64,000 nucleotides of DNA from Myxococcota bacterium (GTDB lineage Bacteria > Myxococcota_A > UBA9160 > JAFDDA01): positions 2,688,001-2,752,000 of the forward strand of contig OZ245817.1 of assembly GCA_965228475.1 (NCBI GenBank). The letters run 5' to 3'. The notes beneath the pieces are model-generated. The model did no database searches. It saw only the letters and a program-made list of their open reading frames with translations, and was not told where the DNA came from. Each line of letters opens with the position of its first letter. Position 1 is the first letter of the stretch. Positions 377-33,996 of this stretch are shown here, piece after piece. Made by a program: the position numbers and the translations under genes.

Positions 377-3274
377 ATGACGGCTCCGACCCGAACGGAG
401 ACGAGCCCCAGCTCCGCCCACGCGCCGCGCTACGCGACGGCGTGGTGCGCCGTGGCCTTCGGCTCCGGCGCCGCCGCGTTGATCTTCCAGACGCTCTGGT
501 TCCGCGCCGCCGGGCTCTCGCTCGGCAACGGCATCTGGGCGAGCAGCGTCGTGCTCTCGGCGTTCATGGCCGGCCTCGCCCTCGGCAACGGACTCGCCGC
601 CCGGCGCGCGGACGGCGTCGCCCGGCCCGCCCGGCTCTATGCGTGGCTCGAGACGGCCATCGGGGCGAGTGGCTTCCTCGTCGTCGCGGGGCTTCCGTGG
701 CTGACCGTGCTCCTCGGCCCGGTACTCGCTTCCCTCCGCGACACCCCGGAGCTCTTGAACCCCTTCCGCCTGACGCTCGCCTTCGGCGTGTTGATGATCC
801 CGGCAACGGCCATGGGCGCCACGCTGCCGGTGCTCGTGAAGGCGCTCTCCCGGCACGACCCGAGCTTCGGCCGGGTGCTCGGCCGCCTCTACGGATGGAA
901 CACGCTCGGCGCGGTCGCCGGGGCCCTCTCGGGCGAGGCGTTCCTGATCGCCCAGTTCGGCGTGCGCGGAACGGCCGTCGTCGCGCTGGTCGTGAATCTC
1001 CTCTCCGCCGCCGCGGCCCTCGCCCTCGGACGCTCGGCCCACGAGGCCGAGCAGGCGGCACCCGCCGCACGGCCCACGCCTCCCGCGGCCCGGGCCGGCA
1101 TCTCCCGGCTCCTCGTCGCGGCGTTCCTCTCGGGGGCGATCTTCCTCGCGCTCGAGGTCGTGTGGTTCCGCTTCCTCGCGCTCTTCGTGTACGGCACCGG
1201 GCTGGTCTTCACGGTGCTCCTGGCCGTCGTCCTCGCCGGCATCGCGCTCGGCGGGCTGCACGCGGCGCGCTGGCTTCGCGACGGCCGCCGCGCCGCACCG
1301 GCCCTCCCGGCCCTCGCCCTCGCCTCGGCCTGCGCGTCCCTGGCCGGGTACGCGGGATACGGCGCGGTCCTCGACGCGTTCCTCCAACCCGGGCATGCGG
1401 CCGCCGCTCTCTGGCACGTTGCGTTGCTCGCGATCCCCTTGATGGCACCGGCGGCGTGGCTCTCCGGCGTGCTCTTCACCGCGCTCGGTGAGGCCGCCCG
1501 GGAGCGGCTCGGCGGCCAGGCCCGGCCGGCCGGCCTGTTGACCCTCGCCAACACCTTGGGCGGCGCGGTCGGATCCCTCGCCGGAGGATTCCTGCTCCTC
1601 CCCCGCCTCGGCATGGAGGGCTCGATCCTCCTCCTCGCCGGCCTCTACGTGGGCATCGCCGCGCTGACCTTCCCGCAGGCCGGCGAATCGGGCGAACGGG
1701 GGGGCGGACGGCGGCTCGGCGCCGCGGGCGCCCTCGCGTGCGCCCTGCTCGCACTGCTCGCCGTCTTCCCGTACGGCGCGCTGCGCGACCGCCACCTGAT
1801 CCACCCGACGCGCGCCTTCGAGGAGCCGGGCGCGCACATCGCGGCCGTCCGCGAAGGTCTCCTCCAGACGATCGTCCTGGTCGAGACGGAGCGCTTCGGC
1901 CAGCCCCTCCACCATCGGCTGTTCACGGACGGCTTCAGCATGTCGGCGACGACGCCCCACTCGCGGCGCTACATGAAGGCCTACGTCTACCTCCCCGTGG
2001 CACTCCACCCCGCACCGCGCGACGCCCTGCTCATCAGCTACGGCGTCGGCTCGACGGCCAAGGCGCTGACGGACACGCGAGCGCTCGAACGCATCGACGT
2101 GGTCGACATCTCTCCCGACGTCCTGGCGACGAGCGCCCTCATCTTCCCGGAACCCGGGAGCGACCCGCTCGACGACCCGCGCGTGACCGTGCACGTCGAA
2201 GACGGACGTTTCTTTCTGCAGACGACGAGCCGACGCTACGACCTCATCACGAGCGAGCCGCCGCCGCCCAAGTACGCCGGCGTCGTGAACCTCTACAGCC
2301 GCGAGTACTTCGAGCTGATCCGCGAGCGGCTGAACGAGGGCGGGCTCGTGACCTACTGGCTCCCGGTCCACAACCTCTCGGAATCCGACGCCCTGGCGAT
2401 CTCGCGGGCCTTCTGCGACGCCTTCGCCGACTGCACGCTCTGGAGCGGCGCCGGAATGGACTGGATGCTCGTCGGGACCCGCGGCGGGCTCTCACCGGTC
2501 GACGAGGCCCAGTTCGCGCGCCAGTGGCAGGACCCCGTCGTCGGGCCGGAGCTGCGGGCCGTCGGCTTCGAGTCGCCCGAGTTCCTCGGCGCGACGTTCC
2601 TGGCCGGCACCGAGACGCTGCGCGCGTGGACCGCCGACGTGGCGCCGGTCGTCGACGACTTCCCTCTGCGCATCTCCCACGAGCCCGTGACGCCCTCGGA
2701 CACCCATGCCTCCACCTTCTTCCGCGACGTGCTGGCGGTCGGCGCGGCGGCCCGTGAGTTCGACGCCAGCCCCTTCGTCCGTTCGCTCTGGCCGGAGGCG
2801 CTGTTCGAGCGGACGCGGCGCGTCTTCCCCTGGCAGCGAATCGTGAACTCCCGGCTCGTCTACGACGGCGGCGCGGCGACCGAGCGCGACCTGCATGCCG
2901 TCCTCACGGAGACGGAGCTGCGCACCCTTCCGCTCTGGCTCCTCGGAACCGAGGTCGAGGAGGTCGCCTTCGCACGGAAGGCCGCCGCAGGGAACGGAGC
3001 CACCGCGAAGGCAGAGCCGATCCGCGCCTTCGGGAGCCTCGCCGAGCGGGACTACGCCGCCGCCTCCGAATGGCTCGCGCGAGCGCGCCGGAGCGACCCG
3101 GCCGATGCCCGCATCGCGAGCCTCGAGGTCTACGCCCTCTGCCTGGCCGGCGAGACCGAGCGCGCCGGCGAGCGGGCACGCGCCCTCCTGAGCGATCATC
3201 CCGAAGCGGCGGGCAGCGATGCCTACTGGCGCTTCCTCAACGAAACGTTCTCGCTCCCGGACCCTCGCGTATGA
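377..3274 (+). CDS. Fused MFS-like membrane domain / spermidine-synthase-like class I SAM-binding domain protein (paralog 1)
   Basis: About 13 hydrophobic segments in two repeats (GRLYGWNTLGAVAG and GLLTLANTLGGAVG), then Rossmann motifs LLISYGVGST, VVDIS, EDGR, YDLITSEPPPP and NLYSREYF; short helical C-terminal tail. Confidence 0.85.
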   Translation: MTAPTRTETSPSSAHAPRYATAWCAVAFGSGAAALIFQTLWFRAAGLSLGNGIWASSVVLSAFMAGLALGNGLAARRADGVARPARLYAWLETAIGASGFLVVAGLPWLTVLLGPVLASLRDTPELLNPFRLTLAFGVLMIPATAMGATLPVLVKALSRHDPSFGRVLGRLYGWNTLGAVAGALSGEAFLIAQFGVRGTAVVALVVNLLSAAAALALGRSAHEAEQAAPAARPTPPAARAGISRLLVAAFLSGAIFLALEVVWFRFLALFVYGTGLVFTVLLAVVLAGIALGGLHAARWLRDGRRAAPALPALALASACASLAGYAGYGAVLDAFLQPGHAAAALWHVALLAIPLMAPAAWLSGVLFTALGEAARERLGGQARPAGLLTLANTLGGAVGSLAGGFLLLPRLGMEGSILLLAGLYVGIAALTFPQAGESGERGGGRRLGAAGALACALLALLAVFPYGALRDRHLIHPTRAFEEPGAHIAAVREGLLQTIVLVETERFGQPLHHRLFTDGFSMSATTPHSRRYMKAYVYLPVALHPAPRDALLISYGVGSTAKALTDTRALERIDVVDISPDVLATSALIFPEPGSDPLDDPRVTVHVEDGRFFLQTTSRRYDLITSEPPPPKYAGVVNLYSREYFELIRERLNEGGLVTYWLPVHNLSESDALAISRAFCDAFADCTLWSGAGMDWMLVGTRGGLSPVDEAQFARQWQDPVVGPELRAVGFESPEFLGATFLAGTETLRAWTADVAPVVDDFPLRISHEPVTPSDTHASTFFRDVLAVGAAAREFDASPFVRSLWPEALFERTRRVFPWQRIVNSRLVYDGGAATERDLHAVLTETELRTLPLWLLGTEVEEVAFARKAAAGNGATAKAEPIRAFGSLAERDYAAASEWLARARRSDPADARIASLEVYALCLAGETERAGERARALLSDHPEAAGSDAYWRFLNETFSLPDPRV

Positions 3275-4917
3275 ACCAGGAAGCCTCGATCGAAGCCCCG
3301 GAGAGCTGGCCGGCCACGGTCTGGCTGGCGCTCGCCGCCGCCTTCGTCGCGATCTCGCTCGTGATCGTGTGGCCGGCCATCGACGGCGCCTTCCTCTCCG
3401 ACGACTACATCTACATCGTGAACAATCCCTACGTTCACGGCCTGTCCTGGGAGAACGTTCGGGCGATCCTCGACCCCTACGGCGCCCCGACGATCTACAC
3501 GCTGAACTACGCGCCGGTCCACCTGCTCCTCCACGCCGCGCAGTGGGAGCTCGTCGGCGACTCGACGCGCCTCTACCACGTGTGCAACGCCATCGCCCAC
3601 GGCCTGACGTCGCTGCTCCTGATCCCCTTCTTCCTGCGCGCGGGGATTCCGCGCATCCCGGCGGCCCTCGCCGCCGGTCTCTTCCTCGTGCATCCCGCCA
3701 ACCTCGAGACGGTCGCGTGGATCTTCCAGCTGAAGACGATCCTCGCGGTGGCGCTCTCGATCGGTGCCCTCCTGCTCCACGAGCGGCGGCCCGCCATCGC
3801 CGCGCTGCTCTTCGGCGTCGCGCTGCTCACCAAGGTCACGGCCCTCGGCGTGCTCCCGGTCGTCGCCGTCCAGGCCTGGGTCCGGAGCCGCGGCGAGAAC
3901 CCGGTGCCGCCCCACTGGGGCTGGATCGGCGGCTGGGTGCTGATCGCGCTCTCGATCGCGGTGCCGGAGATGACGGCCTTCCAGCGCCAGAGCGATGCGC
4001 GCATCCTGATCGCCGAGGACCCGCTGGCCCACCTGCGCACGATCTTCGCGATCGCCGCCCGCTATCTCTGGATGGCGGTCAGCTCCGCCAACGTGGCCGC
4101 CTTCCACGAACCGCCCGTGGCGGAGTCCTGGTTCGACCCGTGGTGGCTCTTCGGGCTCGTGGCCCTCGTCGGCATCGGCGTGCGCATCCTGGTGACCCTC
4201 TTCCGCGGCGAGGAGGAAGCCTGCCAGTGGCTCTTCGCGGCGGCCGCCTTCGGGCCGGTCTCCCAGATCTTCCCGTTCATCTTCCCGATGGGCGACCGCT
4301 ACCTCTACCCGATCCTCCCGGGCCTGCTCGGCGCCCTGCTCCTGGCGTTCACCCCCCTCGCCCGAACGCTCGCGGCGCGCGCGCCGGACGTCGCGCCGAG
4401 GGTCGCGCTCGGCCTGACCCTCGCGCTCACCGCCGTCTTTGCCGTGCGGTCCTACGCGCGGGCGCCGGTCTTCGTCGACAACCTGAGCATGATGCAGGAC
4501 GCCGCCCTCGCCTACCCGGACGGCATGCAGGCCTGGATCCTGCGCGGCCACCAGGCGGCCTACGAGGGCGACGGCGCCGCGGCAGCCCACGCCTTCCGCA
4601 AGGCCATCGACCTCGGGTTCTCGGATCTCCAGGCGATGGTCCTGAACCCGCAGCTGCGGCCGCTACGCCGGCACCCCGAGTTCGAGGCCACGCTGCGTCA
4701 CCTCGCGACGACGGACATCGAGCGGCTCGAACTCCACGAGGACCCGGAGCAGTCGGAGCTCCTCCGTCTCTCCCTGGCCTACGAAGTCCGGGGTGAGCTC
4801 GACGAGGCGATCGGTGCGGTCGAGCGGGCGCTCACGGTGCCCGGCCCCTTCGCGGACGACGCCCGCGCGCGCCTGGCGATGCTCCGCGAGCAGCGCGCGA
4901 AGTCCACGCCCCGGTAA
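3271..4917 (+). CDS. TMTC-like GT-C membrane glycosyltransferase with C-terminal TPR-like repeats
   Basis: ATG at 3271 overlaps the upstream stop (ATGA). Motifs FLSDDYIYIVNNP, YHVCNAIAH, LFLVHPANLETVAWI, LLTK and GDRYLYP; multiple TM segments; TPR-like tail. Confidence 0.75.
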   Translation: MNQEASIEAPESWPATVWLALAAAFVAISLVIVWPAIDGAFLSDDYIYIVNNPYVHGLSWENVRAILDPYGAPTIYTLNYAPVHLLLHAAQWELVGDSTRLYHVCNAIAHGLTSLLLIPFFLRAGIPRIPAALAAGLFLVHPANLETVAWIFQLKTILAVALSIGALLLHERRPAIAALLFGVALLTKVTALGVLPVVAVQAWVRSRGENPVPPHWGWIGGWVLIALSIAVPEMTAFQRQSDARILIAEDPLAHLRTIFAIAARYLWMAVSSANVAAFHEPPVAESWFDPWWLFGLVALVGIGVRILVTLFRGEEEACQWLFAAAAFGPVSQIFPFIFPMGDRYLYPILPGLLGALLLAFTPLARTLAARAPDVAPRVALGLTLALTAVFAVRSYARAPVFVDNLSMMQDAALAYPDGMQAWILRGHQAAYEGDGAAAAHAFRKAIDLGFSDLQAMVLNPQLRPLRRHPEFEATLRHLATTDIERLELHEDPEQSELLRLSLAYEVRGELDEAIGAVERALTVPGPFADDARARLAMLREQRAKSTPR

Positions 4918-10316: not shown

Positions 10317-11063
10317 ATGCGCAAGTTGTTTGCAATTATGGCCGCTGGCTCGCTGTTGGTGGGCGGTGCGGTTCAGGCGGCGCCGGTGGCGACGAACATC
10401 ATCGTCACCGTCACCATCCAGGGCCTCGGCCCGATTTCGTTCTCGGGTGCTGGCACGGTTTCCGTGACCGGTAGCACCGTGTCGATCGCTGCTGGCGCCG
10501 TTTCGCTGCCGGCTCCGGTCGTCGTGCCCGTCACGGCCACCACGGCCGTCACGTCCATCACCGCCATGACCGTCAGCAACCAGGCTGGCACGTTCTCGGC
10601 CGGTGGCGTGACTGCCCAGGCTGCTGGCGAAGTTTGCCCCGGTGGCGGCCCCGCGGCTGGCGCGGCGTGCAACGCCGGCGGCGGCGTTGGCGGCATCATG
10701 GGCCTCTCGGGCTTCATCAACGTGGCCGTCATCCCGATGGTCGTCGTGATCCCGGTGGACCTGAACGCTGCTCTGCTCGGTCAGGGTGGTGCCACGGCCT
10801 CGCCGTTCACGATCGACGCCGCCGTGTTCAGCACGGGCGTCGGCTCGGTGAACTCGGGCACGAACATCATCACGTCGGCCGGTTCGTCGGGCCCGCTCAC
10901 GCTGGTCTCGCCGACCTTCGTGTCGGCCCTCGGCAACCTGCTCCCGATCTTCACGGCGATCACGTTCACGAACGTGAGCCTGCCGGTGCCGGAGCCGGGC
11001 AGCCTGCTGCTCATCGGCACGGGCATCGCGGGCCTCGCCCTTCTCGGCAGCCGCCGGAAGTAA
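10317..11063 (+). CDS. PEP-CTERM surface protein, copy 1 (Ala/Gly/Val/Thr/Ser-rich)
   Basis: Signal peptide MRKLFAIMAAGSLLVGGAVQA; C-terminal VPEPGSLLLIGTGIAGLALLGSRRK; GAGGAG RBS. Confidence 0.95.
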   Translation: MRKLFAIMAAGSLLVGGAVQAAPVATNIIVTVTIQGLGPISFSGAGTVSVTGSTVSIAAGAVSLPAPVVVPVTATTAVTSITAMTVSNQAGTFSAGGVTAQAAGEVCPGGGPAAGAACNAGGGVGGIMGLSGFINVAVIPMVVVIPVDLNAALLGQGGATASPFTIDAAVFSTGVGSVNSGTNIITSAGSSGPLTLVSPTFVSALGNLLPIFTAITFTNVSLPVPEPGSLLLIGTGIAGLALLGSRRK

Positions 11064-11147: not shown

Positions 11148-11366
11148 CGGTCAGCCGGACCGAAAGAGCCAGCAGGGAGCGGCTAGCGACGGCCTGATCC
11201 CCGCGGGGCGTCCATGTTGCCAAAAACCCGCTGAATCGAGAAGAAAAGTGCTCCGGTCGGTGACACATCCCGATTCCCAGGGCCACCTACTCCCTGCATA
11301 CCGGTTTCGGTCCGCTGCGCGCCCCGTAGGCGTTCGCGGCCGCCGGTCAGAGGAGTGGAAACTATC

Positions 11367-12110
11367 ATGCGTAAGTTGTTTGCAATCATGGCCGCGGGCT
11401 CGCTCTTGGTGGGCGGCGCGGTTCAGGCGGCGCCGGTGGCGACGAACATCATCGTCACCGTCACCATCCAGGGCCTCGGCCCGATTTCGTTCTCGGGTGC
11501 TGGCACGGTTTCCGTGACCGGTAGCACCGTGTCGATCGCTGCTGGCGCCGTTTCGCTGCCGGCTCCGGTCGTCGTGCCCGTCACGGCCACCACGGCCGTC
11601 ACGTCCATCACCGCCATGACCGTCAGCAACCAGGCTGGCACGTTCTCGGCCGGTGGCGTGACTGCCCAGGCTGCGAGCGAGCTCTGCGGCGGCGGCCCCG
11701 GCGCGGGCGTTGCCTGCAACGCCGGCGGTGGCGTTGGCGGCATCATGGGCCTCTCGGGCTTCATCAACGTGGCCGTCATCCCGATGGTCGTCGTGATCCC
11801 GGTGGATCTGAACGCTGCTCTGCTCGGCCAGGGTGGTGCGACGAACTCCCCGTTCACGATCGACGCCGCCGTGTTCAGCACGGGCGTCGGCTCGGTGAAC
11901 TCGGGCACGAACATCATCACGTCGGCCGGTTCGTCGGGCCCGCTCACGCTGGTCTCGCCGACCTTCGTGTCGGCCCTCGGCAACCTGCTCCCGATCTTCA
12001 CGGCGATCACGTTCACGAACGTGAGCCTGCCGGTGCCGGAGCCGGGCAGCCTGCTGCTCATCGGCACGGGCATCGCGGGCCTCGCCCTTCTCGGCAGCCG
12101 CCGGAAGTAA
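11367..12110 (+). CDS. PEP-CTERM surface protein, copy 2
   Basis: Same signal peptide and VPEP-TM-RRK tail as copy 1; GAGGAG RBS; ATG at 11367. Confidence 0.95.
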   Translation: MRKLFAIMAAGSLLVGGAVQAAPVATNIIVTVTIQGLGPISFSGAGTVSVTGSTVSIAAGAVSLPAPVVVPVTATTAVTSITAMTVSNQAGTFSAGGVTAQAASELCGGGPGAGVACNAGGGVGGIMGLSGFINVAVIPMVVVIPVDLNAALLGQGGATNSPFTIDAAVFSTGVGSVNSGTNIITSAGSSGPLTLVSPTFVSALGNLLPIFTAITFTNVSLPVPEPGSLLLIGTGIAGLALLGSRRK

Positions 12111-17174: not shown

Positions 17175-17750
17175 CTACGACCTCCGTCCGGAGGCGGCGG
17201 CCCACGCCAGCCCCGACATCAAGAAAACGGCGAGCCGGCCCGGCTCGGGGACGGCCGCGACGATCGAGACGCCGATCATCCCGCCCGTCGGCGGATCCAC
17301 GGTGAGGTCCGCGAGCAGACAGAGCTCGCCGGCACACGCGGCATCCGGCGCGAGGCTCCCGGCGACGTTCGTGACCGTGAGGTCGGCGCCGTCCACCGAG
17401 AGGTGGAGCGCCGGGATGAGGAAGCTGCCGTCCGGGAAGAGCACGCCCAGGCCCGGGTTCGCGAGGCTGCCGTCGAGGCCGATCGAGAAGCCTCCGCCGG
17501 TCAGCGCGAGGGCGACCACGTCGAGGGCCGTGTTGCTTCCGACCGGCGGCAGGGCGCCGAGCTCGAGGGTGATCGTGCCCGAAAGCGGAGACCCGCCGAT
17601 CGTGCTCTGGGCGTCGTCGACCTCGAGGAAGAGCGGCACGGCGGCGGCGGGCGCGGCGAACGCGAGCCCGAGGGCCAGCGCGGCGGCGAGCACCGTCGGC
17701 CGAGGCCAGGAGTTGGGCGGGAGCGGGAGCCGGGAACGAGCGGCAGGCAT
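17175..17750 (-). CDS. Small PEP-CTERM protein
   Basis: Signal peptide (...LALGLAFAAPAAA), one Cys pair (CAGELC), C-terminal VPEPGRLAVFLMSGLAWAAASGRRS. Start could instead be GTG at 17771. Confidence 0.8.
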   Translation of the reverse strand: MPAARSRLPLPPNSWPRPTVLAAALALGLAFAAPAAAVPLFLEVDDAQSTIGGSPLSGTITLELGALPPVGSNTALDVVALALTGGGFSIGLDGSLANPGLGVLFPDGSFLIPALHLSVDGADLTVTNVAGSLAPDAACAGELCLLADLTVDPPTGGMIGVSIVAAVPEPGRLAVFLMSGLAWAAASGRRS

Positions 17751-17887
17751 GAAGACCTCTGGGGCTTCCACCTTCCCGGGTGAACGACCGTTATATCACG
17801 CCGGCGGGGCCTTTGCCGGACGGACTGCGGGGCCGCCGGGCCTTGGCCGGTTTGTCCTCTTGCCGGCTCGTTGCTACCGCAGGCCGG

Positions 17888-20689
17888 GTGACGCGCCCGA
17901 CCCCTCGCGCCTTCGCCTCGTCCTCGCCCCGCGCGCTGGCCCTCGCCTGGACCGTGGCGACCGGCTTCTGCGGCCTCGTCGACGAAGTCGTCTGGCAGCG
18001 CGCCCTGTCGGTCCTTCTCGGCTCCCACGCGGAGGCCACCGCGGCGGTGCTCGCCCTCTTTCTCGGCGGACTGGCCGCCGGCTACGCGGGCTTCGGCCGA
18101 CTCTGTCACCGGCACCCCGAGTGGACCCGCGGCGACCTGCTGCGACGCTACGCCGCCGCCGAGGCCGGCATCGGCCTCCACGCCCTCGCCTTCCCGTGGC
18201 TGTTCGCGGCCGTGCGGGATGGCTCGGCGGCGCTCCCGGCGGGAGGCTTCGCGGCCGAGACCGCGCTCTGCGCCCTGCTCGTCGTTCCGCCGGCCTTCCT
18301 GATGGGCGCCACGGTCCCCCTGCTGACGGACGCCCTGGCCCGGGACGCCGACGACGCGACGCGCCTCCACGCCCAGGTCTACGGCTGGAACACCCTCGGC
18401 GCCTTCCTCGGCGCCCTCGGTGCGGGCTTCTTCCTGCTCCCGGCGCTCGGCGTCGTCGGCTCGCTTCGCGTGACCGCGGCCGTGAACTTCGCCGCGGCCC
18501 TCGGCTTCTTGCACCTCGCGCGGCAAGTGGGCGAGGCGCCGCGCGTGGCCTCCGCGCAAGAACCCGATCGCCCGGCGTCCGGCCCGTCGCTCCCTTGGGA
18601 AGCCACGGCCGCCGCGGGCTTCGGCTTCGCGCTGATGACGCTCCAGACCGTGGCCGTCCGGGTCTCGGGCCTCGCCTTCGGCGCTTCGCCCGCCACCTTC
18701 GCGATCGTCGTCGCGACCTTCGTGCTCTGCATCGCCCTCGGGAGCCTGGCCGTCGCACGCTTCGCAGCCGTCCGCTCGCTTCCCGCAGCGCCCGTCGCCC
18801 TCGGCGCCGCCCTCCTGCTCGCAGCGCTCTTCCCCTTCGTCGACGACGCGGCCTTCGTGGCCCATCGCGTCCGCGTCCTCCTCCCGAACGACACGACGGG
18901 GTTCCACCTCTTCCAGGCCGCGACCGCCGGGCTGGTGTTCGCCGCCCTCTGTCTACCGCTCGCCCTCTCGGGCTCCCTCCTGCCGCTGATGTTCGACGAC
19001 CTGCGCCAGCGCCACCGCGAGCTCGGGGCCGCAGCGGGCCGGCTCTACGCCTGGAACACCGTCGGGAGCGTGCTCGGCGCTCTCGTCGGCGGCTACGCGC
19101 TGCTCCGCTTCCTGGACCTGCACGCGGTCTACCGCGTCGGCGTGGGCGCCGTCGCCATCGCCTCGGCGCTGCTCGCGCACCGCTCCCCGCAAGCCCGGCC
19201 CATCGCGCTCGGCGCCGCGAGCCTCGCGCTGGTTCTCGCGTTTCTCCCGGCCTGGACGCCCGAGAAGCTCTCGACGGCCCACCTGCGCCAGCGCCACGGC
19301 GTCGGCACGGTCTTCGAGACGCCTGCGGATCTCGCCGCGTACCAGCACGCCGGCGGGATCCTGTTCGCGACGGACGACCCGACGACGACCGTCCTCGTCA
19401 ACGAACACACGACCGACGACGACCGCTCCTCGCGCGCGCTCTTCACCAACGGAAAGTCCGACGGCTCGCTCTGGCCCGACTACCCGACCATGGCGCTCGC
19501 CGGGCTGATCCCCTGCGCCCTCGCGGACCGCTGCGAGAACGCCTTCGTGATCGGCCTCGGGACGGGGGTGACCGCCGGCGAGCTCGCCGCCCTGGATGGC
19601 GTCGAGCGCGTGGCGGTGGCCGAGATCTCGACGGGCGTGGTCGAAGCCCTTCCCCTCTTCGCGGAGGGGAACCTCGGCCTCGGCGACCGGCCCGCATTCG
19701 AGCTCCGCCGCAGCGACGCCTACCGCTCGCTCCTCCGGGAGCCCGGCCGCTTCGACGTGATCGCCTCCGAGCCGAGCCACCCCTGGGCGATCGGCGTCGA
19801 GAACCTCTTCGCCCTCGAGTTCCTGCGCGCGGCGCGGGACCGGCTCGCGCCCGGCGGCGTCTTCGCCCAGTGGATCCACGCGTATGAGATGGACGACGCG
19901 ACCCTCGCCCTCGTCCTGCGGACCTACGCCGCCGCGTTTCCCGAGGTGGCCGTCTGGTACGCGTCGGGCCCCGATCTCCTGCTGCTCGGCTTCGGCGACG
20001 TGCCCCCTGCGCGCGACCCCGAACGCCTCGCCGCCCGCTTCGCCCGGCCGGACTTCGCCGCGGGCTTCGCGCGGGCCGGCGTCGACTCCCTCTCCGGGCT
20101 CCTCGCGCACGAACTCGTCCCGGGCGGCGTGATCACCCGGGCCGCGCTGCCGGGCCCGATCCACACCCTGCTCCACCCCCGGCTCGCCCACGCGGCGGCG
20201 GCCGCGTTCTTCCGGGACGACCGCGCGCGCCTGCCGAGGCTCGACGGCCCGGATGCCCGAGCCCGGGCCCTCCACGCCCGAGCCCTCGGCCTCGCCATGC
20301 GCGACGGGAAGCTCTCGGAGGACCAGTACGAAGCCGTGGTCCGCCGCCTCTGCGTCTCCCGCGAGTGGGAATGCACGACGGCGCTCGGGAGCTGGCGCCA
20401 CGACTACCCGGACTCGCCTCGCCCCCACGCCGTCCGCGCGGAACTCGCCGAGAGCCAGGAGCCGCACCTGCTCGAATCCCGCATCGACCTCCTCGCCGGG
20501 CTCTTCGGCGACGGACTCGGCCCCCTCGACGCCGAGTCCACCCGGCGCGTCCACGAGCACTACACCGCCTACTATCACCACGCGCTGCCGTTCCGGCCCG
20601 AAGCCATCGCCCGGACGCTCGAGCGCTGCGAAGGCGAAGGCTGCGAGGCGCTGCGGACGGCCGTGCGGAAGGAGGAACCCCATGAGTGA
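17888..20689 (+). CDS. Fused MFS-like / spermidine-synthase-like SAM-binding protein (paralog 2)
   Basis: YGWNTLG and YAWNTVG repeats; LFTNGKSDGS, VIGLGTGVT, VAEIS, FDVIASEPSHPW, ENLFALEF. Start uncertain (GTG 17888 or 17780). Confidence 0.85.
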   Translation: MTRPTPRAFASSSPRALALAWTVATGFCGLVDEVVWQRALSVLLGSHAEATAAVLALFLGGLAAGYAGFGRLCHRHPEWTRGDLLRRYAAAEAGIGLHALAFPWLFAAVRDGSAALPAGGFAAETALCALLVVPPAFLMGATVPLLTDALARDADDATRLHAQVYGWNTLGAFLGALGAGFFLLPALGVVGSLRVTAAVNFAAALGFLHLARQVGEAPRVASAQEPDRPASGPSLPWEATAAAGFGFALMTLQTVAVRVSGLAFGASPATFAIVVATFVLCIALGSLAVARFAAVRSLPAAPVALGAALLLAALFPFVDDAAFVAHRVRVLLPNDTTGFHLFQAATAGLVFAALCLPLALSGSLLPLMFDDLRQRHRELGAAAGRLYAWNTVGSVLGALVGGYALLRFLDLHAVYRVGVGAVAIASALLAHRSPQARPIALGAASLALVLAFLPAWTPEKLSTAHLRQRHGVGTVFETPADLAAYQHAGGILFATDDPTTTVLVNEHTTDDDRSSRALFTNGKSDGSLWPDYPTMALAGLIPCALADRCENAFVIGLGTGVTAGELAALDGVERVAVAEISTGVVEALPLFAEGNLGLGDRPAFELRRSDAYRSLLREPGRFDVIASEPSHPWAIGVENLFALEFLRAARDRLAPGGVFAQWIHAYEMDDATLALVLRTYAAAFPEVAVWYASGPDLLLLGFGDVPPARDPERLAARFARPDFAAGFARAGVDSLSGLLAHELVPGGVITRAALPGPIHTLLHPRLAHAAAAAFFRDDRARLPRLDGPDARARALHARALGLAMRDGKLSEDQYEAVVRRLCVSREWECTTALGSWRHDYPDSPRPHAVRAELAESQEPHLLESRIDLLAGLFGDGLGPLDAESTRRVHEHYTAYYHHALPFRPEAIARTLERCEGEGCEALRTAVRKEEPHE

Positions 20690-20904: not shown

Positions 20905-21876
20905 CTAGCCGTCGAGGTGCCGACGAAGCTCCCGCAGCGCGCCACGGTGGTTGGCGGGAAGCGAACGCAGGGCCGAGCGGGGAGCCCGGCGCGGCGGGAC
21001 GCCGCCCGCGTGCTCGATGAAGCGCACCACCCAGCCCCGGCGGCCGCTGAACGGTGCGAGCAGCTCGAGCATGCGTTCGTCGCCGGCCCGCCGCTCGCCC
21101 GCGAGGTTCCAGGCGACGTGGCTCGGCAGATGGAGGTCTCCGATCGGGAACGCGTCCGGCCGACCGCCCGCGTAGAGTTCGAGCGAGCTCACCGTCCACG
21201 GCCCGATGCCGGGCAGCGCTCGAAGGCGGGAGGTCGCCCCCGGTGCCCCGAGGTGTCCGAATCCGGAGAGGCGCGCGGCCTCCCGTCCGACGTTCCGCAG
21301 CGTTGCGCCGCGCCTGGCATCGAGGCCGAGGGGCGCGAAGGCCCAGTCGGGCAGCCGGGCGACGCGCTCGGGATCGGGCGGCAGCCACAGGGCGGGGAAC
21401 GGGCCCGGCGCGGGCTCGGAGGCGATGCTCACGAGCGCGCGGTGGCTTCGCGCCGCCTCCTTGCCCGAGACCTTCTGCTGGAGAACCAGCAGGAAGAGGA
21501 ACGGCAGCCAATCCTCGAGGCACGAAAGGCGAAGCCCCTCGCAGGCCCGGACCAGCCTGCGAATCCGCGGCGGGAAGCCCTCCGGCCGGGGTGCGTCGCT
21601 GGCCAGCCCGAGCAGGGCCGGCGCGGATTCGAGCGCCGCCTCCGCCCCCGCGCCGTAGGCGACGAGGCGAAGCGAGCCGGGCCGGTGCAGGATGCACAGC
21701 GTCGCCGGCCCGAGAGCGGTCCGCTCCGCGCGCAGCCACCCCACCTCGCCGCCGGCTTCGACCACGCGCTGGGTCGGATCGGCGAAGCCCGAGGAGAGCG
21801 GCCGCGCGATCGCCCGGAGATCGAGGGGGCCCTCGAAGGCGAGGTGCCGCTCGAGCGGGGCCGCGCCGGCGTTCAC
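20905..21876 (-). CDS. DNA-3-methyladenine glycosylase II family (AlkA/HhH-GPD)
   Basis: VLQQKVSGKEA, helix-hairpin-helix LRALPGIGPWT, DAFPIGDLHLP; GTG at 21876 overlaps the upstream stop (GTGA). Confidence 0.8.
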   Translation of the reverse strand: MNAGAAPLERHLAFEGPLDLRAIARPLSSGFADPTQRVVEAGGEVGWLRAERTALGPATLCILHRPGSLRLVAYGAGAEAALESAPALLGLASDAPRPEGFPPRIRRLVRACEGLRLSCLEDWLPFLFLLVLQQKVSGKEAARSHRALVSIASEPAPGPFPALWLPPDPERVARLPDWAFAPLGLDARRGATLRNVGREAARLSGFGHLGAPGATSRLRALPGIGPWTVSSLELYAGGRPDAFPIGDLHLPSHVAWNLAGERRAGDERMLELLAPFSGRRGWVVRFIEHAGGVPPRRAPRSALRSLPANHRGALRELRRHLDG

Positions 21877-24170
21877 CGGGAGAAGTCCGGGGCCGCGATG
21901 CGGCGGCCTTCGCGGACGTCTTCCTCGCCGACGTCGACCGTGCGCTCGGCACCGCTCGCAAAGACCCCGTACCCGCCGCGGCTTCGAACCCGGCCGTTGG
22001 CTTCCCGCGTCGCGTAGGGAACCCGGAGACGGTAGACGCCGTCGGTGCCCGCCCGGGTGCGGGAGCCCCACGCGAACTCCCGGCCACCGGCCGTTGCCAG
22101 GGCGAGTTCCACCGAGACCTCCGCTCCGGGCGGCGCCCGCCCTTCGAGCTCGGCCCCTCGGACGAACTCGTAGAGCTTGAAGAACGGCTGCTCGGGCGCC
22201 CAGGGCTTCGGCCGGGCCTCGTACACCAGACGGTGACGCTCGAGGGCCGGCACGTCGACGACGACCTCCCGGAACGCCGCGGGCAGGGTGCGCGCCCGGG
22301 AGCGCTGCGCCGCCTGGCCGTCCGCGAAGAAGGCTCGGGCGATCATCGAGCGGGGTCCGAACTCCGCGAGCGCGCCCTGGCGCCGATACTCGAGGACGAC
22401 GTAGCGGACGCCGAAGGCATCGAGGATCTCCGCGGCTTCGGGCTCGCTCGCCGCGAAGTAGCGGGCCATCGCATCCATGCCCTCGGGTCCGAGGTCGTCC
22501 CCGAAGTTCGTGACGACCGCGGGGCGTTCGCCGGCGGTCAGCAGGATGTGCCCGTTCGCCCAGAAACCCAGCACGCCGTACTCCGGCGGCGAGCCGCCGC
22601 GGGCTTCGAAGCCGCTCGTCGGCGGAGAGTTGCCGCGCAGCCAGCTGGCCAGGCGATGCAGCTCGCGCCGCTGGAGCTGGTCCGCGGCGAGCCTCATCGG
22701 CTGGCCCGCACGCAGCGCAGCCCGGCGCTCGAGGGCCGGGGCGAACCCCTGGAGCGTCGGGAGCAGGAGCAGGAGACCGAGCGCCACCGTCCCTCCAGCG
22801 AGCAGCGCGCGGACGAACCGCCCCCGCTCGGCGAGTCGCAGCCGCCGGGGCAGCTCGACGACGAAGGTCCAGCCGAGCAGCAGCGCCAGGAGAACCGAGA
22901 AGGGATTCGCGAAGCGCCGCTGGGCCAGCGTCGCCAGCGCCAGCCCGACCAGCAAGACGAGGAACAGCCACGCGCTCGGATCGAAGGGCCGCTGGCGGAG
23001 TCGGGCGAGGAACGCCCAGGCCAGAACCGGAACGAAGAGGAACCCACCCGAGAGCTGCTGCAGGCCCTCGGCGAGGCGGCCCCGCGGGTCCGGGGCGAAC
23101 AGGGCCTGGGACTCGGCGACCTGACTCTGGAAGGACTCGGTCCGCGCCAGCCAGGACCACATGCGGCCCGGTGCTTCCCCGAGCTCGGGCAGGAGGAGGC
23201 CGCTCCCGAGCGCCAGCGCCGCCGCCGAGCCGAGGGCCACGGCGAGCCGCTGGGCCGGCGGGCGATGGGCCACGCTGGCGAGGGCCGCGAAGCAGAGGCT
23301 CGCGCAGGCGAGCAGCCAGGGCTGGAAGCCGCCGAGCACGACCGGCGCGAAGCCGCCCCAATAGGCGTAGTCGCGGCCGGCGAAGGGCAGGAGGAAGAGG
23401 AGCGAAAGTCCGTGGACCAGGCTGGCTCGCAGGCACAGGGCGCGGGCGAACCTCGCGTCGAGGAAGACGGCCCAGGCCGCGAACGTCGCGGAGACGAGCA
23501 GGAGCTGGAGGAGCGACCCGGGCCAGACGAGGAGCGACCCCGCCTGGGTGGCTGCCAGCGCCCCGACGGCAGCCACGTCCCGGCCAGCCCAGCGCTCGGC
23601 CCCCGACGCCCGGAGGGCGAGTCCGCTCCCGGCGGCGAGGAAGGCCAGGGTCACCAGGGGCTCCGCCGCGTGGTGGTCGAGCATCCCGAAGCGGCTGTAG
23701 ACGGCGTGGGCCGGGAGGATCGCCAGAACGCCGGCGGCGGCGAGGCCCGAACCGGGCCCGAAGCGCCAGGCTCCCCAGGCGAAGCAGCCGAGGATCGCCG
23801 CACCCCCGAGCCAGACCGGGACGGCCATGGCGAAGGCCGCCAGCCGCTCGGGCGGCACGTCCGGCCCGAGCCGGAGCCGCGCCGCCGCCGCCACGCTCCA
23901 ATCGAGGCCCGGAGGCCAGATCACGTCGCCGCCCGTAGGGTGGTTCAGGTAGGGGTCCCGCTCGAGGACCTCGGGGAAGTTCGCGTAGCTGAAGCAAACG
24001 CGGCGCAGGTGGTAGTAGGCATCCGGTCCGACCGGGCGGATCCCCTCGGCGGTCCGGACCGTCGGCGCATCGAGCATGCGCAGGTTCGCCCCGAGGGCGA
24101 GCACACCCAGGAGCAAGAGCCCGGCAACGGCCCACGCGGCCCGATCGCGGCGGTGTTCGGCGTCCCCCAC
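21873..24170 (-). CDS. STT3/AglB/PglB-like oligosaccharyltransferase
   Basis: GPDAYYHLRR, DPYLNHPTG, WPPGLD, DHHAAE, VAESQ, RRF, then soluble domain with VLGFWANGH (WWDYG position) and VTNFG; about 13 TM segments; beta-rich C-terminal extension. Confidence 0.8.
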   Translation of the reverse strand: MGDAEHRRDRAAWAVAGLLLLGVLALGANLRMLDAPTVRTAEGIRPVGPDAYYHLRRVCFSYANFPEVLERDPYLNHPTGGDVIWPPGLDWSVAAAARLRLGPDVPPERLAAFAMAVPVWLGGAAILGCFAWGAWRFGPGSGLAAAGVLAILPAHAVYSRFGMLDHHAAEPLVTLAFLAAGSGLALRASGAERWAGRDVAAVGALAATQAGSLLVWPGSLLQLLLVSATFAAWAVFLDARFARALCLRASLVHGLSLLFLLPFAGRDYAYWGGFAPVVLGGFQPWLLACASLCFAALASVAHRPPAQRLAVALGSAAALALGSGLLLPELGEAPGRMWSWLARTESFQSQVAESQALFAPDPRGRLAEGLQQLSGGFLFVPVLAWAFLARLRQRPFDPSAWLFLVLLVGLALATLAQRRFANPFSVLLALLLGWTFVVELPRRLRLAERGRFVRALLAGGTVALGLLLLLPTLQGFAPALERRAALRAGQPMRLAADQLQRRELHRLASWLRGNSPPTSGFEARGGSPPEYGVLGFWANGHILLTAGERPAVVTNFGDDLGPEGMDAMARYFAASEPEAAEILDAFGVRYVVLEYRRQGALAEFGPRSMIARAFFADGQAAQRSRARTLPAAFREVVVDVPALERHRLVYEARPKPWAPEQPFFKLYEFVRGAELEGRAPPGAEVSVELALATAGGREFAWGSRTRAGTDGVYRLRVPYATREANGRVRSRGGYGVFASGAERTVDVGEEDVREGRRIAAPDFSR

Positions 24171-24319: not shown

Positions 24320-27300
24320 ATGTCGATGCCCGCCCTGTTTCGCTCGTCCCTTGCACTCGCCGTGTTGCTCGCCGCCGCCGGCTGCTCGCCGAACCCGAAG
24401 GCCCCGGAGGTCGGCGCGCAGCTGTTCCAAAGCCCGCACGTGAACTCGATCGCGCTCGCGCGCGCGGACCGCAAGCTCGTGGTCGCGAACACGACCTCGG
24501 CCACGGTGTCGGTCTTCGAGACGAACCTGCTGCCGCACGATCCCGAAGGCGCGCTGATCGGCGAGATCGCCGTCGGCATCGATCCGGTGAGCGTCGCGAT
24601 CCGGCCGAAGAACGGCCCGAACGACCGCGACCTCGCGCTCGTCGCGAACCACATCTCCGACTCGATCTCGGTCATCGACCTATCGAAGCTCGGTGTCGTG
24701 CAGACCCTCCAGGAGTTCGACGCGGACGGCGTGACCACCACGGATGCCCCGACCGGCATCGTGTTCGCGAGCCCGGACCGCGCCTTCGTCGCACTCGACG
24801 ACCGCGACGAGATCGTGGTGATCGACTTCGACGCGAACGGCCGCGCCAGCATCAACCCGGAGCGGCTGCCGATCACGGCCCAGGCGCCGCGCGCCATGAC
24901 CGTCGTGGGCGACCGGCTGCTCGTCGGGGCCTTCGAGTCCGGCAACCAGACGGAGTTCCCGAACTGCGGCCCCCTCGATACGCCGGCGACCGCCCCCTTC
25001 CTCCCGGGCGACCCCTACGACGAAGGCTGCATGTTCTACAACCGCTTCATCGAGAGCATCACCGTCAACGACATCTTCAACCTCGACCTCGACCTCGAGT
25101 TCGGCGTGATCGTCGACTTCGCCGCGCGCAACCCGAACATCGGCGGCGAGGTCGTGATCGACCGCGACCGGCCCGACCGCGACGTCTTCGTCTTCGACGT
25201 GGCCGCCCTCGGCGCGCCGCTCCAGGTGATCGACGGCGTCAGCACCCTGCTCTACGGCATGGAGAGCAGCGGCAACCGCGTGTTCGTGACGAGCGCCGAC
25301 GGCCGGAACGATCTCGACGGCCTCGACGACCTCGACAACCGGATGTTCGAGAACCGCATCTCCTGGTTCGACTGCGACCCGGACTGCGGCCCGGTCCAGC
25401 ACCGGGACCTCGACCAGAACGCCCACGGCGTGCCGGTGCCGACGCCCTACGGCGTCCGGGCCAGCGCCGACGGCTCGGCCCTGGTCGTCGCCGTCTCCGG
25501 CTCCGACGGGATCCCCGGCCTCGCCGAAGACCCGACGACGGACATCCCCGGCCTCGTCACCCTCGACGCCTCGGGCAACGTGCTCGGCCACGTCCAGACC
25601 GGCGCCATTCCGCAGAGCGTGGCTCTCGCGAGCGACGAAGCCGGCGCGGCCCAGACCGCCTACGTCCTGAACGTCGTCGACAGCACGATCTCCGTCGTGG
25701 ACGTGAGCGACCTCGCGAACCCCCAGATCCTCGGCACGTTCAGCGTCGGCAACGACCCGACGCCGCCCGAGATCCGGGACGGCCGCAGGAACTTCATGTC
25801 GGCCCGCGCTTCGACGAAGGGCACCTTCTCCTGCGAGTCCTGCCACCCGAACGGGAACACGGACCAGCTCATCTGGACGATCAACACGGTCGAGAGCCGC
25901 GAAGACGTGCCGGAGTGCAACCCCTTCGAGGAGAACTGCCCGGAGCCGCGCACCACGATGCCGACCCCGCGCGGCCTGCGGGACACGCTCCCGCTGCACT
26001 GGCTCGGCAACCTCGCCGACCCCTTCCCGGACCACGAAGACCAGCTCTTCCAGCCCGAGGACGACGGCGCGCCGGACTGCGATCTCGAGACCGACGGCGA
26101 GATCGGCTGCGCCCGGCACCTCGTGAACGCGAGCCTCTCGGGCGTCATGTGCGACCAGGCCGGCGGCTGCGCGGTCGGCCCCTCGGGCCTGCCCGGCGCC
26201 TACACGGAGGCCGAGCGCAACGCCATGGCCGCCTTCATGATGTCCGTGAGCTACCCGCCCTCGCCCACCCGCCGCCCGGACGACGCCCTGTCGCCGGTGG
26301 CCATGCAGGGCGTGACGGACTTCTTCACGGACGAAGACGGGCTCGGCGTCGGGAGCGCGGCGGCCGGCGTCGGCGCGGCGGTCGGCTTCTCGCCGATCAC
26401 GTGCGCCGACAACTCCGGCGGCTGCCACGCCCTCCCGCTCACCGTCGACACCAACAGCCTCACGGTCGGCGCCTTCGACGTGCCGACCATGCGTGGCATG
26501 TGGGACCGCCACGTGCAGTTCTCGAACGGCAGCCCGAGCTCGGAAGAGGTGCTCCGCGCCGGCCAGGACTGCGCCGACGGCAACCCGCCCGGCGACCACC
26601 CGAACCTCGGGAACTTCCTCACCGGCGACCCGTGCGCCCTCGCGTCGCCCTTCATCGAGGCGTTCCTGGGCTTCCAGCTCGACCCCTTCCAGGGCGTTCC
26701 GAGCGGCGAGGAGATCTACGACCCGGCGGTCGGCGTGACCGAGCGCGGCGTCTTCCTCTCGACGTTCGAGTCGCTCTTCCAGCTCGCCTACGGCGTGCGG
26801 GGCGCCCCGATGTGGGAGTTCTTCTCGGAGATGGGCGTCGGCTTCGCAGGCGTCTACGGCCGCCAGCTCACCGTCGACGCGAGCGACGCGCAGTCGCCGG
26901 CGACCCAGGACGCGCTGAACCCGCTGGTCGCCGCAGCCGACGAGGGCCGCATCGCCCTGCGCGCGAGCTTCATGGGTGGGGACCGCGACTACTCCTACTC
27001 CGAGGGCCGCTGGCACCTGACCCAGCTCCCCGACGACAAGGAGAGCAACGGCTTCACGACCGAGAAGGTCCTCCAGCAGGTGGTCGACTGGGACCAGGTC
27101 CTGACCTTCACCGCCCACCTCCGCGAGGGCATCAGCATCGGCGGCGCGGATCGCCAGCCGCTGCTCCACGTGGACCCGGAGCGCAAGGAGACCGAGGACT
27201 TCGGCGAGCTGCTCGCCATCCCGCGGCCCGAGCCCCTGCCGAACCAGGCCTTCCGCATCGGCGGCATCTACGTCGACCCGGCGGCCAAGATCCTGGTCAA

Positions 27301-27736
27301 CGGCGCGCTCTGCGAAGACTGCAGCTTCACCATGGGCACGACCGAGTTCGGAACCCACCTCGACGTGACGCTCGTCGACGCGCTCCCGCTCGGCACGCAC
27401 GTCATGCAGGTGATGAACCCGGACGGCTGGATCAGCAACGAGATGCCGCTCCAGGTCGAGTTCCCGCCGCCGCCCTTCGTCCAGGTGCCCGACGAGACGA
27501 TCGAGTGCATGGAAGAGGCCGGCTGCTTCACCGACGCCGATCCGATCGGCTGCGGCGCGCTCGCGGGCTGCACGGATCTGCCGGGCAGCGTGGTCTGCGA
27601 AGAAGCCGGCGGCTTCCTCGACTGCGACAGCTGCGTGGTCGAACCGGACTGCTCCGACGGGAGCTGCACGCCGGTCTCGGACACGCTGCTCGTCCCGACC
27701 GGCCCGGGCAACTGCGGGATCCCGATCGAGCTCTGA
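24320..27736 (+). CDS. Large lipoprotein: YncE/YVTN beta-propeller + diheme cytochrome c (bCcP/MauG-like) domain + Cys-rich tail
   Basis: Lipobox AAAGC; VANHISDSISVIDL and VLNVVDSTISVVDV blades; CESCH; TPRGLRDTLPLHWLG; CADNSGGCH; FDVPTMRG; GGAGG RBS. Confidence 0.8.
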   Translation: MSMPALFRSSLALAVLLAAAGCSPNPKAPEVGAQLFQSPHVNSIALARADRKLVVANTTSATVSVFETNLLPHDPEGALIGEIAVGIDPVSVAIRPKNGPNDRDLALVANHISDSISVIDLSKLGVVQTLQEFDADGVTTTDAPTGIVFASPDRAFVALDDRDEIVVIDFDANGRASINPERLPITAQAPRAMTVVGDRLLVGAFESGNQTEFPNCGPLDTPATAPFLPGDPYDEGCMFYNRFIESITVNDIFNLDLDLEFGVIVDFAARNPNIGGEVVIDRDRPDRDVFVFDVAALGAPLQVIDGVSTLLYGMESSGNRVFVTSADGRNDLDGLDDLDNRMFENRISWFDCDPDCGPVQHRDLDQNAHGVPVPTPYGVRASADGSALVVAVSGSDGIPGLAEDPTTDIPGLVTLDASGNVLGHVQTGAIPQSVALASDEAGAAQTAYVLNVVDSTISVVDVSDLANPQILGTFSVGNDPTPPEIRDGRRNFMSARASTKGTFSCESCHPNGNTDQLIWTINTVESREDVPECNPFEENCPEPRTTMPTPRGLRDTLPLHWLGNLADPFPDHEDQLFQPEDDGAPDCDLETDGEIGCARHLVNASLSGVMCDQAGGCAVGPSGLPGAYTEAERNAMAAFMMSVSYPPSPTRRPDDALSPVAMQGVTDFFTDEDGLGVGSAAAGVGAAVGFSPITCADNSGGCHALPLTVDTNSLTVGAFDVPTMRGMWDRHVQFSNGSPSSEEVLRAGQDCADGNPPGDHPNLGNFLTGDPCALASPFIEAFLGFQLDPFQGVPSGEEIYDPAVGVTERGVFLSTFESLFQLAYGVRGAPMWEFFSEMGVGFAGVYGRQLTVDASDAQSPATQDALNPLVAAADEGRIALRASFMGGDRDYSYSEGRWHLTQLPDDKESNGFTTEKVLQQVVDWDQVLTFTAHLREGISIGGADRQPLLHVDPERKETEDFGELLAIPRPEPLPNQAFRIGGIYVDPAAKILVNGALCEDCSFTMGTTEFGTHLDVTLVDALPLGTHVMQVMNPDGWISNEMPLQVEFPPPPFVQVPDETIECMEEAGCFTDADPIGCGALAGCTDLPGSVVCEEAGGFLDCDSCVVEPDCSDGSCTPVSDTLLVPTGPGNCGIPIEL

Positions 27737-32602: not shown

Positions 32603-33025
32603 TCAGCGGAGGGGCTCGCCCCGGGCGTACAGAAATGTCTCTTTTTCTGATTGAATCCGGGAGGTTGCGGGGTCCAACCACATGCGCTGGACCACCACGA
32701 CCAGATTCTCGTGCTCCGGGTGACCGGCATGGACCGCCCGGGCCAGGGCATCCGGCCGGACGAGGGTGCCGAGGACGCTGCGGCGCGCCCGAAAGTCCTG
32801 GAGCGCCAGCCGCACCTCGCGGCCGAGGGTTTCCTCGTCGATGTGGGCCAGCCCGCGGTCCGTCGGGCGGAAGAGCGCCGCCAGGGACGTCTGATAGCTC
32901 GTGTACATGGCGAAGCCGCCGAGCTTCCACGGGTTGGCATCGATCGCCACCACCACCCCGCGGTGGGCGAGCGGCCAGAGGGCCACCACCAGCACGACCG
33001 CCAGGTAGCGCCTCGCGCCCCTCAC
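32603..33025 (-). CDS. Small N-terminally anchored partner of the HTTM-like protein
   Basis: GTG at 33025 overlaps the upstream stop (GTGA); hydrophobic N-terminus, then NPWKLGGFAMY. Confidence 0.65.
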   Translation of the reverse strand: MRGARRYLAVVLVVALWPLAHRGVVVAIDANPWKLGGFAMYTSYQTSLAALFRPTDRGLAHIDEETLGREVRLALQDFRARRSVLGTLVRPDALARAVHAGHPEHENLVVVVQRMWLDPATSRIQSEKETFLYARGEPLR

Positions 33026-33996
33026 AGGAGATTCCAATCGGCCGGATGCCCCGGCACCGCCGAGCCGAGCGCCAGCAGCCCGTAGATCAGGAAGAGCGCG
33101 AACGCCGGGAAGAGGCGTGCGTTCCAGGGCCCGGGCAGGAAGAGCAGCAGCAGGTTCACGAAGAGCATGGCGAAGCCGAGCTCGAGGGCCGCGACCTGGA
33201 TCCCGACCATGAGGCCGATCGAGGCGAGCGCGCCGAGCACGCGCGTCCGCCGGGCGACGAGCAGCGCCGGCAAGGTCAGCTCCGCCATCCAGACCAGGTT
33301 CGAAGCCAGCGCGAACAGGGGCGCATCGACCCGATAGGGCCCGGCCCCCGTGGCCTTGCGATCGAGCCCCGAAAGGCGCGTGAGCTCCGCCTCGGGAAGC
33401 AGCCAGCGGAAGACGCGCCCGAAGCGCTCTTCCGTCCCCGCCATGAGCGCCAGGAACTCCCCCTGGAAGTAGGCCCCGTAGAAGAGCTTCTGGAGCCCGG
33501 TGTGGAACAGGACGAGCGCGGTCGTCCAGCGGAGGGCGGCGAGCGCGTGGGCCTCACCCTCCCCTTCGGAGTCGCGCGGGACGAGCGCCAGCAGCAGGAC
33601 GCAGACGAGCTCGAGGTAGAGATGGTTCGCGGTGTAGGGGAAGCGCCAGACGACCTGGGCGAGCACCGCGGGCAGTGCGATGCACGCCGGGAGGCTGCCC
33701 GCCCCCGCGCGGAGCGAGAGTCCGGCGGCCACGCACAGGGTCACGGCCGCAACGAGGAGCAGGAGGTCGCCCCGGGTCGAGAGTGCCAGCCAGAGCAGGC
33801 TGCGGACCGCGCCGTAGAAGAGGAGGAAGCGCTGGAAGTCCTGGATCCGGGCCCGGGCGTCGCCCGGCGGATCGGTCACCCAGGCCCAGGCCTTCGAAAG
33901 GAGCGAGGCCTCGCGGGGACCTTCGGCCGGCGCGCTTCGCCGGCCTCCGCGCGGCGCCTTCGACGACGCCTTCGACGACGGTTTCGGAGGGGACAC
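33022..33996 (-). CDS. HTTM-like (vitamin K-dependent carboxylase / SdpB-like) membrane protein
   Basis: Multi-TM; TANHLYL, FHTGLQKL...YFQGE, AELTLPALL...RTR. Start uncertain. Confidence 0.6.
   Translation of the reverse strand: MSPPKPSSKASSKAPRGGRRSAPAEGPREASLLSKAWAWVTDPPGDARARIQDFQRFLLFYGAVRSLLWLALSTRGDLLLLVAAVTLCVAAGLSLRAGAGSLPACIALPAVLAQVVWRFPYTANHLYLELVCVLLLALVPRDSEGEGEAHALAALRWTTALVLFHTGLQKLFYGAYFQGEFLALMAGTEERFGRVFRWLLPEAELTRLSGLDRKATGAGPYRVDAPLFALASNLVWMAELTLPALLVARRTRVLGALASIGLMVGIQVAALELGFAMLFVNLLLLFLPGPWNARLFPAFALFLIYGLLALGSAVPGHPADWNLL

Follow-up and report, generated by a model that had tools for sequence, protein, structure and literature searches.

In a window of 64,000 nucleotides, i.e. 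the whole stretch of DNA analysed here (positions 2,688,001 to 2,752,000 of contig OZ245817.1, assembly GCA_965228475.1, from a Myxococcota bacterium), three open reading frames (ORFs) encode proteins with an MFS-type membrane domain followed by a spermidine-synthase-fold domain and a C-terminal tail (paralogs 1 to 3; Table 1). An initial annotation of the window proposed that they are transporter-coupled methyltransferases acting outside the cytoplasm. The three ORFs and all quoted cysteines were borne out, as were the basic loops RGGGRR, HRSPQAR and SRK and the motifs SYGVG/GLGTG/GLGGG and EPPPP/EPSHP/QPSHP of paralogs 1, 2 and 3, respectively. All three proteins pass the cut-offs of PF01564 and of NF037959, the "fused MFS/spermidine synthase" family, and are members of a known but uncharacterised annotation family. 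The reading frame of paralog 2 is open from position 17780, upstream of the GTG used here as its start.

Table 1. Features in the window. TM, transmembrane helix; pLDDT and pTM, the confidence measures of AlphaFold (predicted local distance difference test and predicted template modelling score).
Feature	Position	Strand	Details
Paralog 1	377-3274	+	965 aa; 13-TM MFS, spermidine-synthase fold and helical (TPR-like) tail; NF037959 86.8 bits (cut-off 40); AlphaFold pLDDT 94.8, pTM 0.93
Paralog 1, MFS domain, TM1-12	422-1666	+	residues 16-430; E260, N175 and N392 invariant
Paralog 1, end of basic cytoplasmic loop (RGGGRR) and TM13	1697-1762	+	TM13, residues 444-462
Paralog 1, spermidine-synthase-fold domain	1802-2692	+	predicted periplasmic
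Paralog 1, enzyme-domain marks	2414-2434 (Cys pair)		SYGVGST 554-560; D577; EPPPP 627-631; Cys pair C680/C686
Paralog 1, C-terminal helical tail	2693-3250	+	weakly TPR-like; all-helical in AlphaFold model
Paralog 2	17888-20689	+	933 aa from GTG 17888; architecture as paralog 1; NF037959 112.9 bits
Paralog 2, TM13	19187-19237	+	residues 434-450; model helix H434-450; 13th hydropathy peak
Paralog 2, co-varying Cys pair	19514-19534	+	C543/C549, enzyme domain
Paralog 2, tail cysteines	20351-20644	+	C822, C829, C914, C919
Paralog 3	59916-62888	-	990 aa; architecture as paralog 1; NF037959 117.5 bits; MFS_1 E 3e-5
Paralog 3, marks	61287-61301; 61074-61088; 61560-61610	-	GLGGG; QPSHP; TM13
GT-C-type and TPR polytopic gene (TMTC-like)	3271-4917	+	overlaps paralog 1 stop (ATGA)
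STT3/AglB-type (archaeal-type) oligosaccharyltransferase	21873-24170	-	near paralog 2; TIGR04154 269.8 bits, below cut-off 450; AglB_L1 and AglB core Pfam

The initial annotation counted three paralogs; all three exist, but BLAST against every ORF of the genome (a single contig of 5.0 Mb) raised the number to six, with ~30% mutual identity and one pair at 45%. A seventh PF01564 match is a small soluble domain. The nearest named relatives of the paralogs are Myxococcota bins, and paralogs 5 and 6 form long branches in a quick version of the tree. A fifth paralog, a 1158-aa frame in the region G000:C1:1261918-1269659, is oriented divergently from two genes resembling type IV pilins and from genes for pilus-associated ABC transporters, as read from the sequence. 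Word-indexed searches supplied the homologs, which are closely related (45-74% identity) and number 120, 119 and 120 for the clades of paralogs 1, 2 and 3 and 359 in total; one 676-aa fragment was left out of the paralog-2 set. Because these homologs are kin, counts among them measure consistency and are not independent trials. Seven paralog-1 relatives (L051, L052, L054, L065, L072, L076, L079) are seemingly split over two frames, possibly by assembly frameshifts.

The proposed duplication of six helices within the membrane domain was confirmed by BLAST of one half against the other (E 3e-4, 4e-7 and 1e-15 for paralogs 1, 2 and 3). Single-sequence hydropathy, with 12 peaks over the membrane part of every window paralog, left the helix count ambiguous; therefore, models and family averages were used in its place. 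AlphaFold folding covered paralogs 1 and 2, and both models contain a whole MFS fold on residues ~10-441, then one extra helix, and then the enzyme domain. Family-averaged hydropathy had 13 peaks for paralogs 2 and 3, and paralog 3, judged by hydropathy and charge bias, belongs to a clade with 13 peaks and a bias for a cytoplasmic N terminus (N-in) in 120/120. The paralog 1 TM13, a helix in the model, is hydrophobic in 117/120 homologs, and the loop ahead of it holds on average 2.7 Lys and Arg. With helix limits set by hand from the model (paralog 1) or by peak picking (paralogs 2 and 3), Lys plus Arg was higher on the side of the N terminus in 120/120, 119/119 and 120/120 homologs, i.e. in 359/359. 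An N-in orientation combined with 13 helices places the enzyme domain outside the cytoplasm. Thus, the outward topology of the initial annotation is well supported as a prediction, and the enzyme domain very probably faces outward. The pTM of the whole model indicates that the domains are packed in a defined way, and no more than that about the geometry between cavity and active site.

Membership of the MFS is consistent with the 12-TM 6+6 fold, its long central loop and a predicted N-in, C-in orientation of the core. MFS motif A (GxLxDRxGRR) lies between TM2 and TM3. In the 13-TM forms its Gly and Arg are kept and its Asp is mostly replaced, and some 7-TM forms have a GGxxADR-like version.

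Cysteine patterns agree with an outward enzyme domain. The pairs noted in the paralog 2 tail (CVSREWEC, CEGEGC) are present, and C822, C829, C914 and C919 are all invariant in 119/119 homologs; they could form two disulfides or a metal site instead. Such pairs had been noted for paralog 2 only, but paralog 1 also carries a conserved pair, C680/C686, with both residues in 117 homologs, neither in 2 and a split pair in 1. For C543/C549 of paralog 2, both are present in 26 homologs, C549 alone in 3, C543 alone in 0 and neither in 90. The paralog 3 clade has 0.12 Cys per domain compared with ~5 expected from the 0.93% of the genome.

Taken at its name, the family would consist of spermidine synthases or other aminopropyltransferases, or would hold its enzyme domain in the cytoplasm. 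The PF01564 matches favour this, as do best PDB matches that are aminopropyltransferases and 7-TM relatives with intact motifs. However, the acid of GxG(D/E)G that binds the amine of decarboxylated S-adenosylmethionine (dcSAM) is present in 0/359 homologs (register checked against 1iy9), and the D103I substitution alone abolishes the activity of the spermidine synthase SPDS and yields methyl transfer, which Q79T and V106T raise (Junker et al., PMC3725402). The equivalent of the amine ligand Q79 is Met in 114/120 (clade 1) and 104/119 (clade 2) homologs. The proposed loss of the catalytic DxxD holds in all three paralogs for the second acid; as for the first, paralogs 1 and 2 still have Glu, and only paralog 3 has Gln. 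Moreover, the SpeE equivalogs are missed by far (TIGR00417 at most 68.4 against a cut-off of 249.55, PRK03612 at most 123.8 against 472). The S-adenosylmethionine decarboxylase SpeD (PF02675) was not found in this genome (G000, 96% complete) by a profile search that detected controls in 7/14, and PF01536 had no match in a search that detected no control. Among 121 genomes of the class, the family occurs in 112 and SpeD in 8, each of which also has the family; i.e. SpeD is absent from 104/112 family-bearing genomes. In total, the claim that these proteins are not aminopropyltransferases is well supported. Given also the predicted outward topology, the reading as annotated is extremely unlikely; the paralogs are almost certainly not SpeE, and the family name "spermidine synthase" is very probably wrong.

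Compared with SpeE, including the 7-TM PRK03612 and the haloarchaeal HVO_0255/HVO_B0357, the paralogs differ in lacking the dcSAM acid and the second putrescine acid, in the SpeD not found, and in a complete MFS in one chain. NF037959 shares their membrane repeat and enzyme fold, but its model (480 positions) describes a 7-TM form with one half-MFS, whereas the paralogs combine the two halves with 13 TM and a helical tail; its name implies an activity against which the paralog motifs argue, and no characterised member was found. Among 7-TM relatives, those that keep G(G/A)GDG occur in 4 genomes, 3 of them with SpeD (G042 being without a SpeD match), and one such gene lies directly downstream of SpeD; six other 7-TM relatives are without the dcSAM acid. 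The acid-keeping 7-TM fusions L274 (G049:C85; speD directly upstream) and L278-L280 share the TM1 Glu and the basic loop before helix 7. A true aminopropyltransferase of the 7-TM type might also face outward and need export of dcSAM.

The enzyme domain has the marks of an S-adenosylmethionine (SAM) methyltransferase on a spermidine-synthase fold: the seven-strand fold, an acid-free Gly-rich loop and a ribose-binding Asp/Glu. Putrescine N-methyltransferase (PMT) and the C-terminal domain of METTL13 are methyltransferases that likewise build on this scaffold and have a residue other than an acid at the dcSAM position. PMT keeps its putrescine-binding acids, unlike the paralogs, and both PMT and the METTL13 domain are soluble and cytoplasmic. 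The closest precedent in architecture is the fungal N-terminal histidine methyltransferase NHMT (Aspergillus nidulans AN4663), in which an odd number of TM is followed by an acid-free spermidine-synthase-fold domain; it acts on secreted proteins and requires its TM part (PMC10349129). It differs from the paralogs in having 7 TM instead of 13 and in residing in the eukaryotic endoplasmic reticulum (ER); its authors regard the TM domain as unique, propose no SAM transport in the sections covered here and raise SAM supply in the ER as an open point (PMC10349129). From the retained SAM-binding residues and the precedents of NHMT, METTL13 and PMT, it is plausible that the enzyme domain is a SAM-dependent methyltransferase. 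Invariant acceptor-site motifs are clade-specific (EPPPP, EPSNPW, QPSHPW), which fits, together with the deep and separately conserved clades, the proposal that each paralog may have its own acceptor.

Within the MFS domain of clade 1, conservation is higher in the inner helices than in TM3, 6, 9, 12 and 13. The TM1/TM7 acid pair retains at least one Glu per clade (E/E, E/Q or Q/E), both Asn of TM5/TM11 are kept with no exception, and the TM1 Glu is invariant in all eight rows of alignment A2; a comparison of profile A4 with A2 was circular, A2 holding the second half of paralog 3, and was not used. This pattern argues against the MFS half as a bare anchor and does not name the cargo. One alternative would have an outward methyltransferase whose MFS moves the acceptor or product, lipid-linked or a small molecule, or serves as a scaffold, SAM arriving by another route. 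Across clades whose acceptor sites differ, and in both acid and non-acid 7-TM forms, the cavity residues stay the same, which fits a shared cargo, the cofactor, and makes this alternative very unlikely. We infer that the cofactor is the simplest cargo, since SAM must reach an outward enzyme of this kind and S-adenosylhomocysteine (SAH) must be carried off.

Alternatively, the proteins would be importers and the outer domain a fused solute-binding module that captures SAM, methylthioadenosine, SAH or polyamine-like cations. The nearest MFS folds include the cation carriers VMAT2 and VAChT, and one paralog-2 sub-clade is oriented divergently from TonB-dependent receptors; however, all MFS matches are at 10-15% identity and uninformative on substrate, the TonB arrangement is absent at the window paralogs, and macromolecules as the target of modification are suggested by the helical tails, the GT-C genes nearby and the precedent of NHMT. 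We regard import as quite unlikely. Carriage of SAM by an MFS fold has been proposed for the Golgi transporters GoSAMT1/2 and Caenorhabditis elegans SAMT1 (MFS_5), into a lumen for glycan methylation (bioRxiv 2021.07.06.451061). These are likened to the paralogs by fold and role; unlike them they stand alone without a fusion, and their own authors call them putative (bioRxiv 2021.07.06.451061).

The genome also encodes a protein-L-isoaspartate methyltransferase, Pcm (PF01135), with a predicted lipoprotein signal peptide (G000:C1:4239473-4240270, minus strand; locus L281/L284), and a second Pcm elsewhere without a signal. By a crude threshold, 26/30 best Pcm matches in the class, this gene included, have a signal-like hydrophobic stretch, and 8 have a lipobox. 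An exported Pcm supports a periplasmic need for SAM and equally supports a rival in which the fusions would mainly export SAM or re-import SAH, serving a periplasmic pool that is shared; the outer Rossmann domain would bind the cofactor and hand it to separate exported enzymes such as this Pcm, itself transferring methyl groups hardly or not at all. Such Pcm occur in this genome and across the class, and no acceptor of the fusions emerged from the analysis. On the other hand, six deeply split paralogs, with an acceptor-site motif and a tail specific to each clade, exceed the need of one exporter; the Pcm gene adjoins no paralog, and the genome yielded no AmmeMemoRadiSam radical SAM gene. A shared pool is therefore unlikely, if the most serious of the rivals.

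We slightly favour, as the whole mechanism, an outward methyltransferase fed with SAM by its own MFS domain. The 12-helix MFS fold and the 13th helix would place the spermidine-synthase-fold domain in the periplasm. Cytoplasmic SAM would enter the MFS cavity, where the Glu/Gln pair of TM1/TM7 and the Asn pair of TM5/TM11 could bind it, and would be let go at the outer face to the tethered enzyme domain. This domain would methylate an exported acceptor, most likely a secreted protein or its glycan, which the helical tail may help to recognise; SAH would take the same way back, probably in exchange, and the paralogs would differ in acceptor. By analogy, such a protein would most likely work like an NHMT that has its own SAM carrier in the same chain.

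For the acceptor, our best guess is a secreted protein or its glycan. Paralog 2 is surrounded by PEP-CTERM, sulfatase-fold, PrsT-like and STT3 genes; the STT3/AglB-type oligosaccharyltransferase has four copies in the genome. The gene that overlaps the end of paralog 1 has TPR_2 as its only Pfam match and reaches E 2e-50 against a profile of such neighbours, which the genes downstream of the paralog-1 relatives in L001 and L003 match too; by its motif we call it TMTC-like. For positions 377-4917, the listing of RNA holders was empty. GT-C-type genes were found at 6/49 paralog-1 loci (each at least 14 kb, from 79 fetched) compared with 5/282 background windows. The paralog 1 tail, possibly an acceptor-recognition part, matches TPR chains by profile at only E 0.0075-0.9, and a few homologs carry TPR Pfam tags. 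Counts of PrsT-like TPR proteins may include the family's own tails and were not used.

Several observations weigh against this mechanism. No activity, transport or topology experiment was found for any family member. Among solved structures, those closest to the enzyme domain are without exception aminopropyltransferases, and the Thr equivalent to V106T, present in 344/359 homologs, is not diagnostic because true aminopropyltransferases also have Thr at this PMT position (GGGEGAT, GGGEGST). The four invariant Cys of paralog 2 could bind metal in the cytoplasm, and private feeding explains the exported Pcm no better than a shared SAM pool does. The NHMT authors found no bacterial match for its membrane domain (PMC10349129). 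Searches of the ESM Atlas, queried with one half of a 13-TM form and with a 7-TM protein, yielded only PF01564 clusters, mainly bacterial ones, without a fungal link, and are uninformative on homology to NHMT. Little can be read into the absence of METTL13-C and NHMT from PDB sequence and fold match lists, because spermidine synthase and MFS entries filled them. Across 79 loci, no conserved operon was found for paralog-1 relatives, most neighbours being unrelated, and surface genes near them were at background (15/49 compared with 79/282). GT-C-type genes near paralog-2 relatives (9/40 loci, and 4/31 metagenome loci, the 31 of 80 long enough) are a partly circular enrichment, because those very loci supplied the profiles and the relatives are not independent, and the PEP-CTERM pattern was not enriched there (6/40 compared with 58/282). 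In total, the initial interpretation is partly supported, and nothing found contradicts it.

Joined with its relatives, the family can be read more broadly, although we hold this only tentatively, at slightly less than even chances: a widespread, self-supplying enzyme family may carry out bacterial SAM methylation outside the cytoplasm, its MFS exporting SAM into the tethered methyltransferase. The 7-TM forms would be dimerising half-transporters, the SpeD-linked forms would do the same with dcSAM, and fungal NHMT would be a eukaryotic branch; here, the paralogs would methylate different secreted (PEP-CTERM, pilin) proteins or glycans and may feed the exported Pcm. SAM chemistry in bacteria is usually treated as cytoplasmic. 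A literature search, with most subscription papers beyond its reach, found no paper on bacterial MFS-fed periplasmic methyltransferases. One paralog alone had 3214 matches among 8000 scored candidates; if this reading is true, a very large annotated family (112/121 class genomes) is misnamed. It would also establish a SAM exporter in bacteria and a group of methylations in the envelope, and suggest a route of SAM supply for NHMT in the ER and for exported Pcm enzymes.

Among paralog-2-clade loci, an exported helical-repeat protein of ~400 aa without a Pfam match directly adjoins the clade gene in 12/14 loci holding it, upstream in L119, L120, L124, L127, L131, L136, L164, L188 and L199 and downstream in L134, L171 and L212, and is often accompanied by a divergent TonB-dependent receptor; one query and one profile did not find it in this genome. 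Elsewhere in the window lie two tandem, near-identical PEP-CTERM genes (10317-11063 and 11355-12110; N-terminal 70 residues identical) and a third PEP-CTERM-like gene (17175-17771, minus strand). A gene pair at 32603-33996 (minus strand) encodes a membrane protein of the polytopic type and a small exported one, has no family match and presumably resembles HTTM/vitamin-K-carboxylase-like pairs. Finally, a lipoprotein-like beta-propeller of 1138 aa with CxxCH motifs (24320-27736, plus strand) is weakly similar to hydrazine synthase beta subunits.
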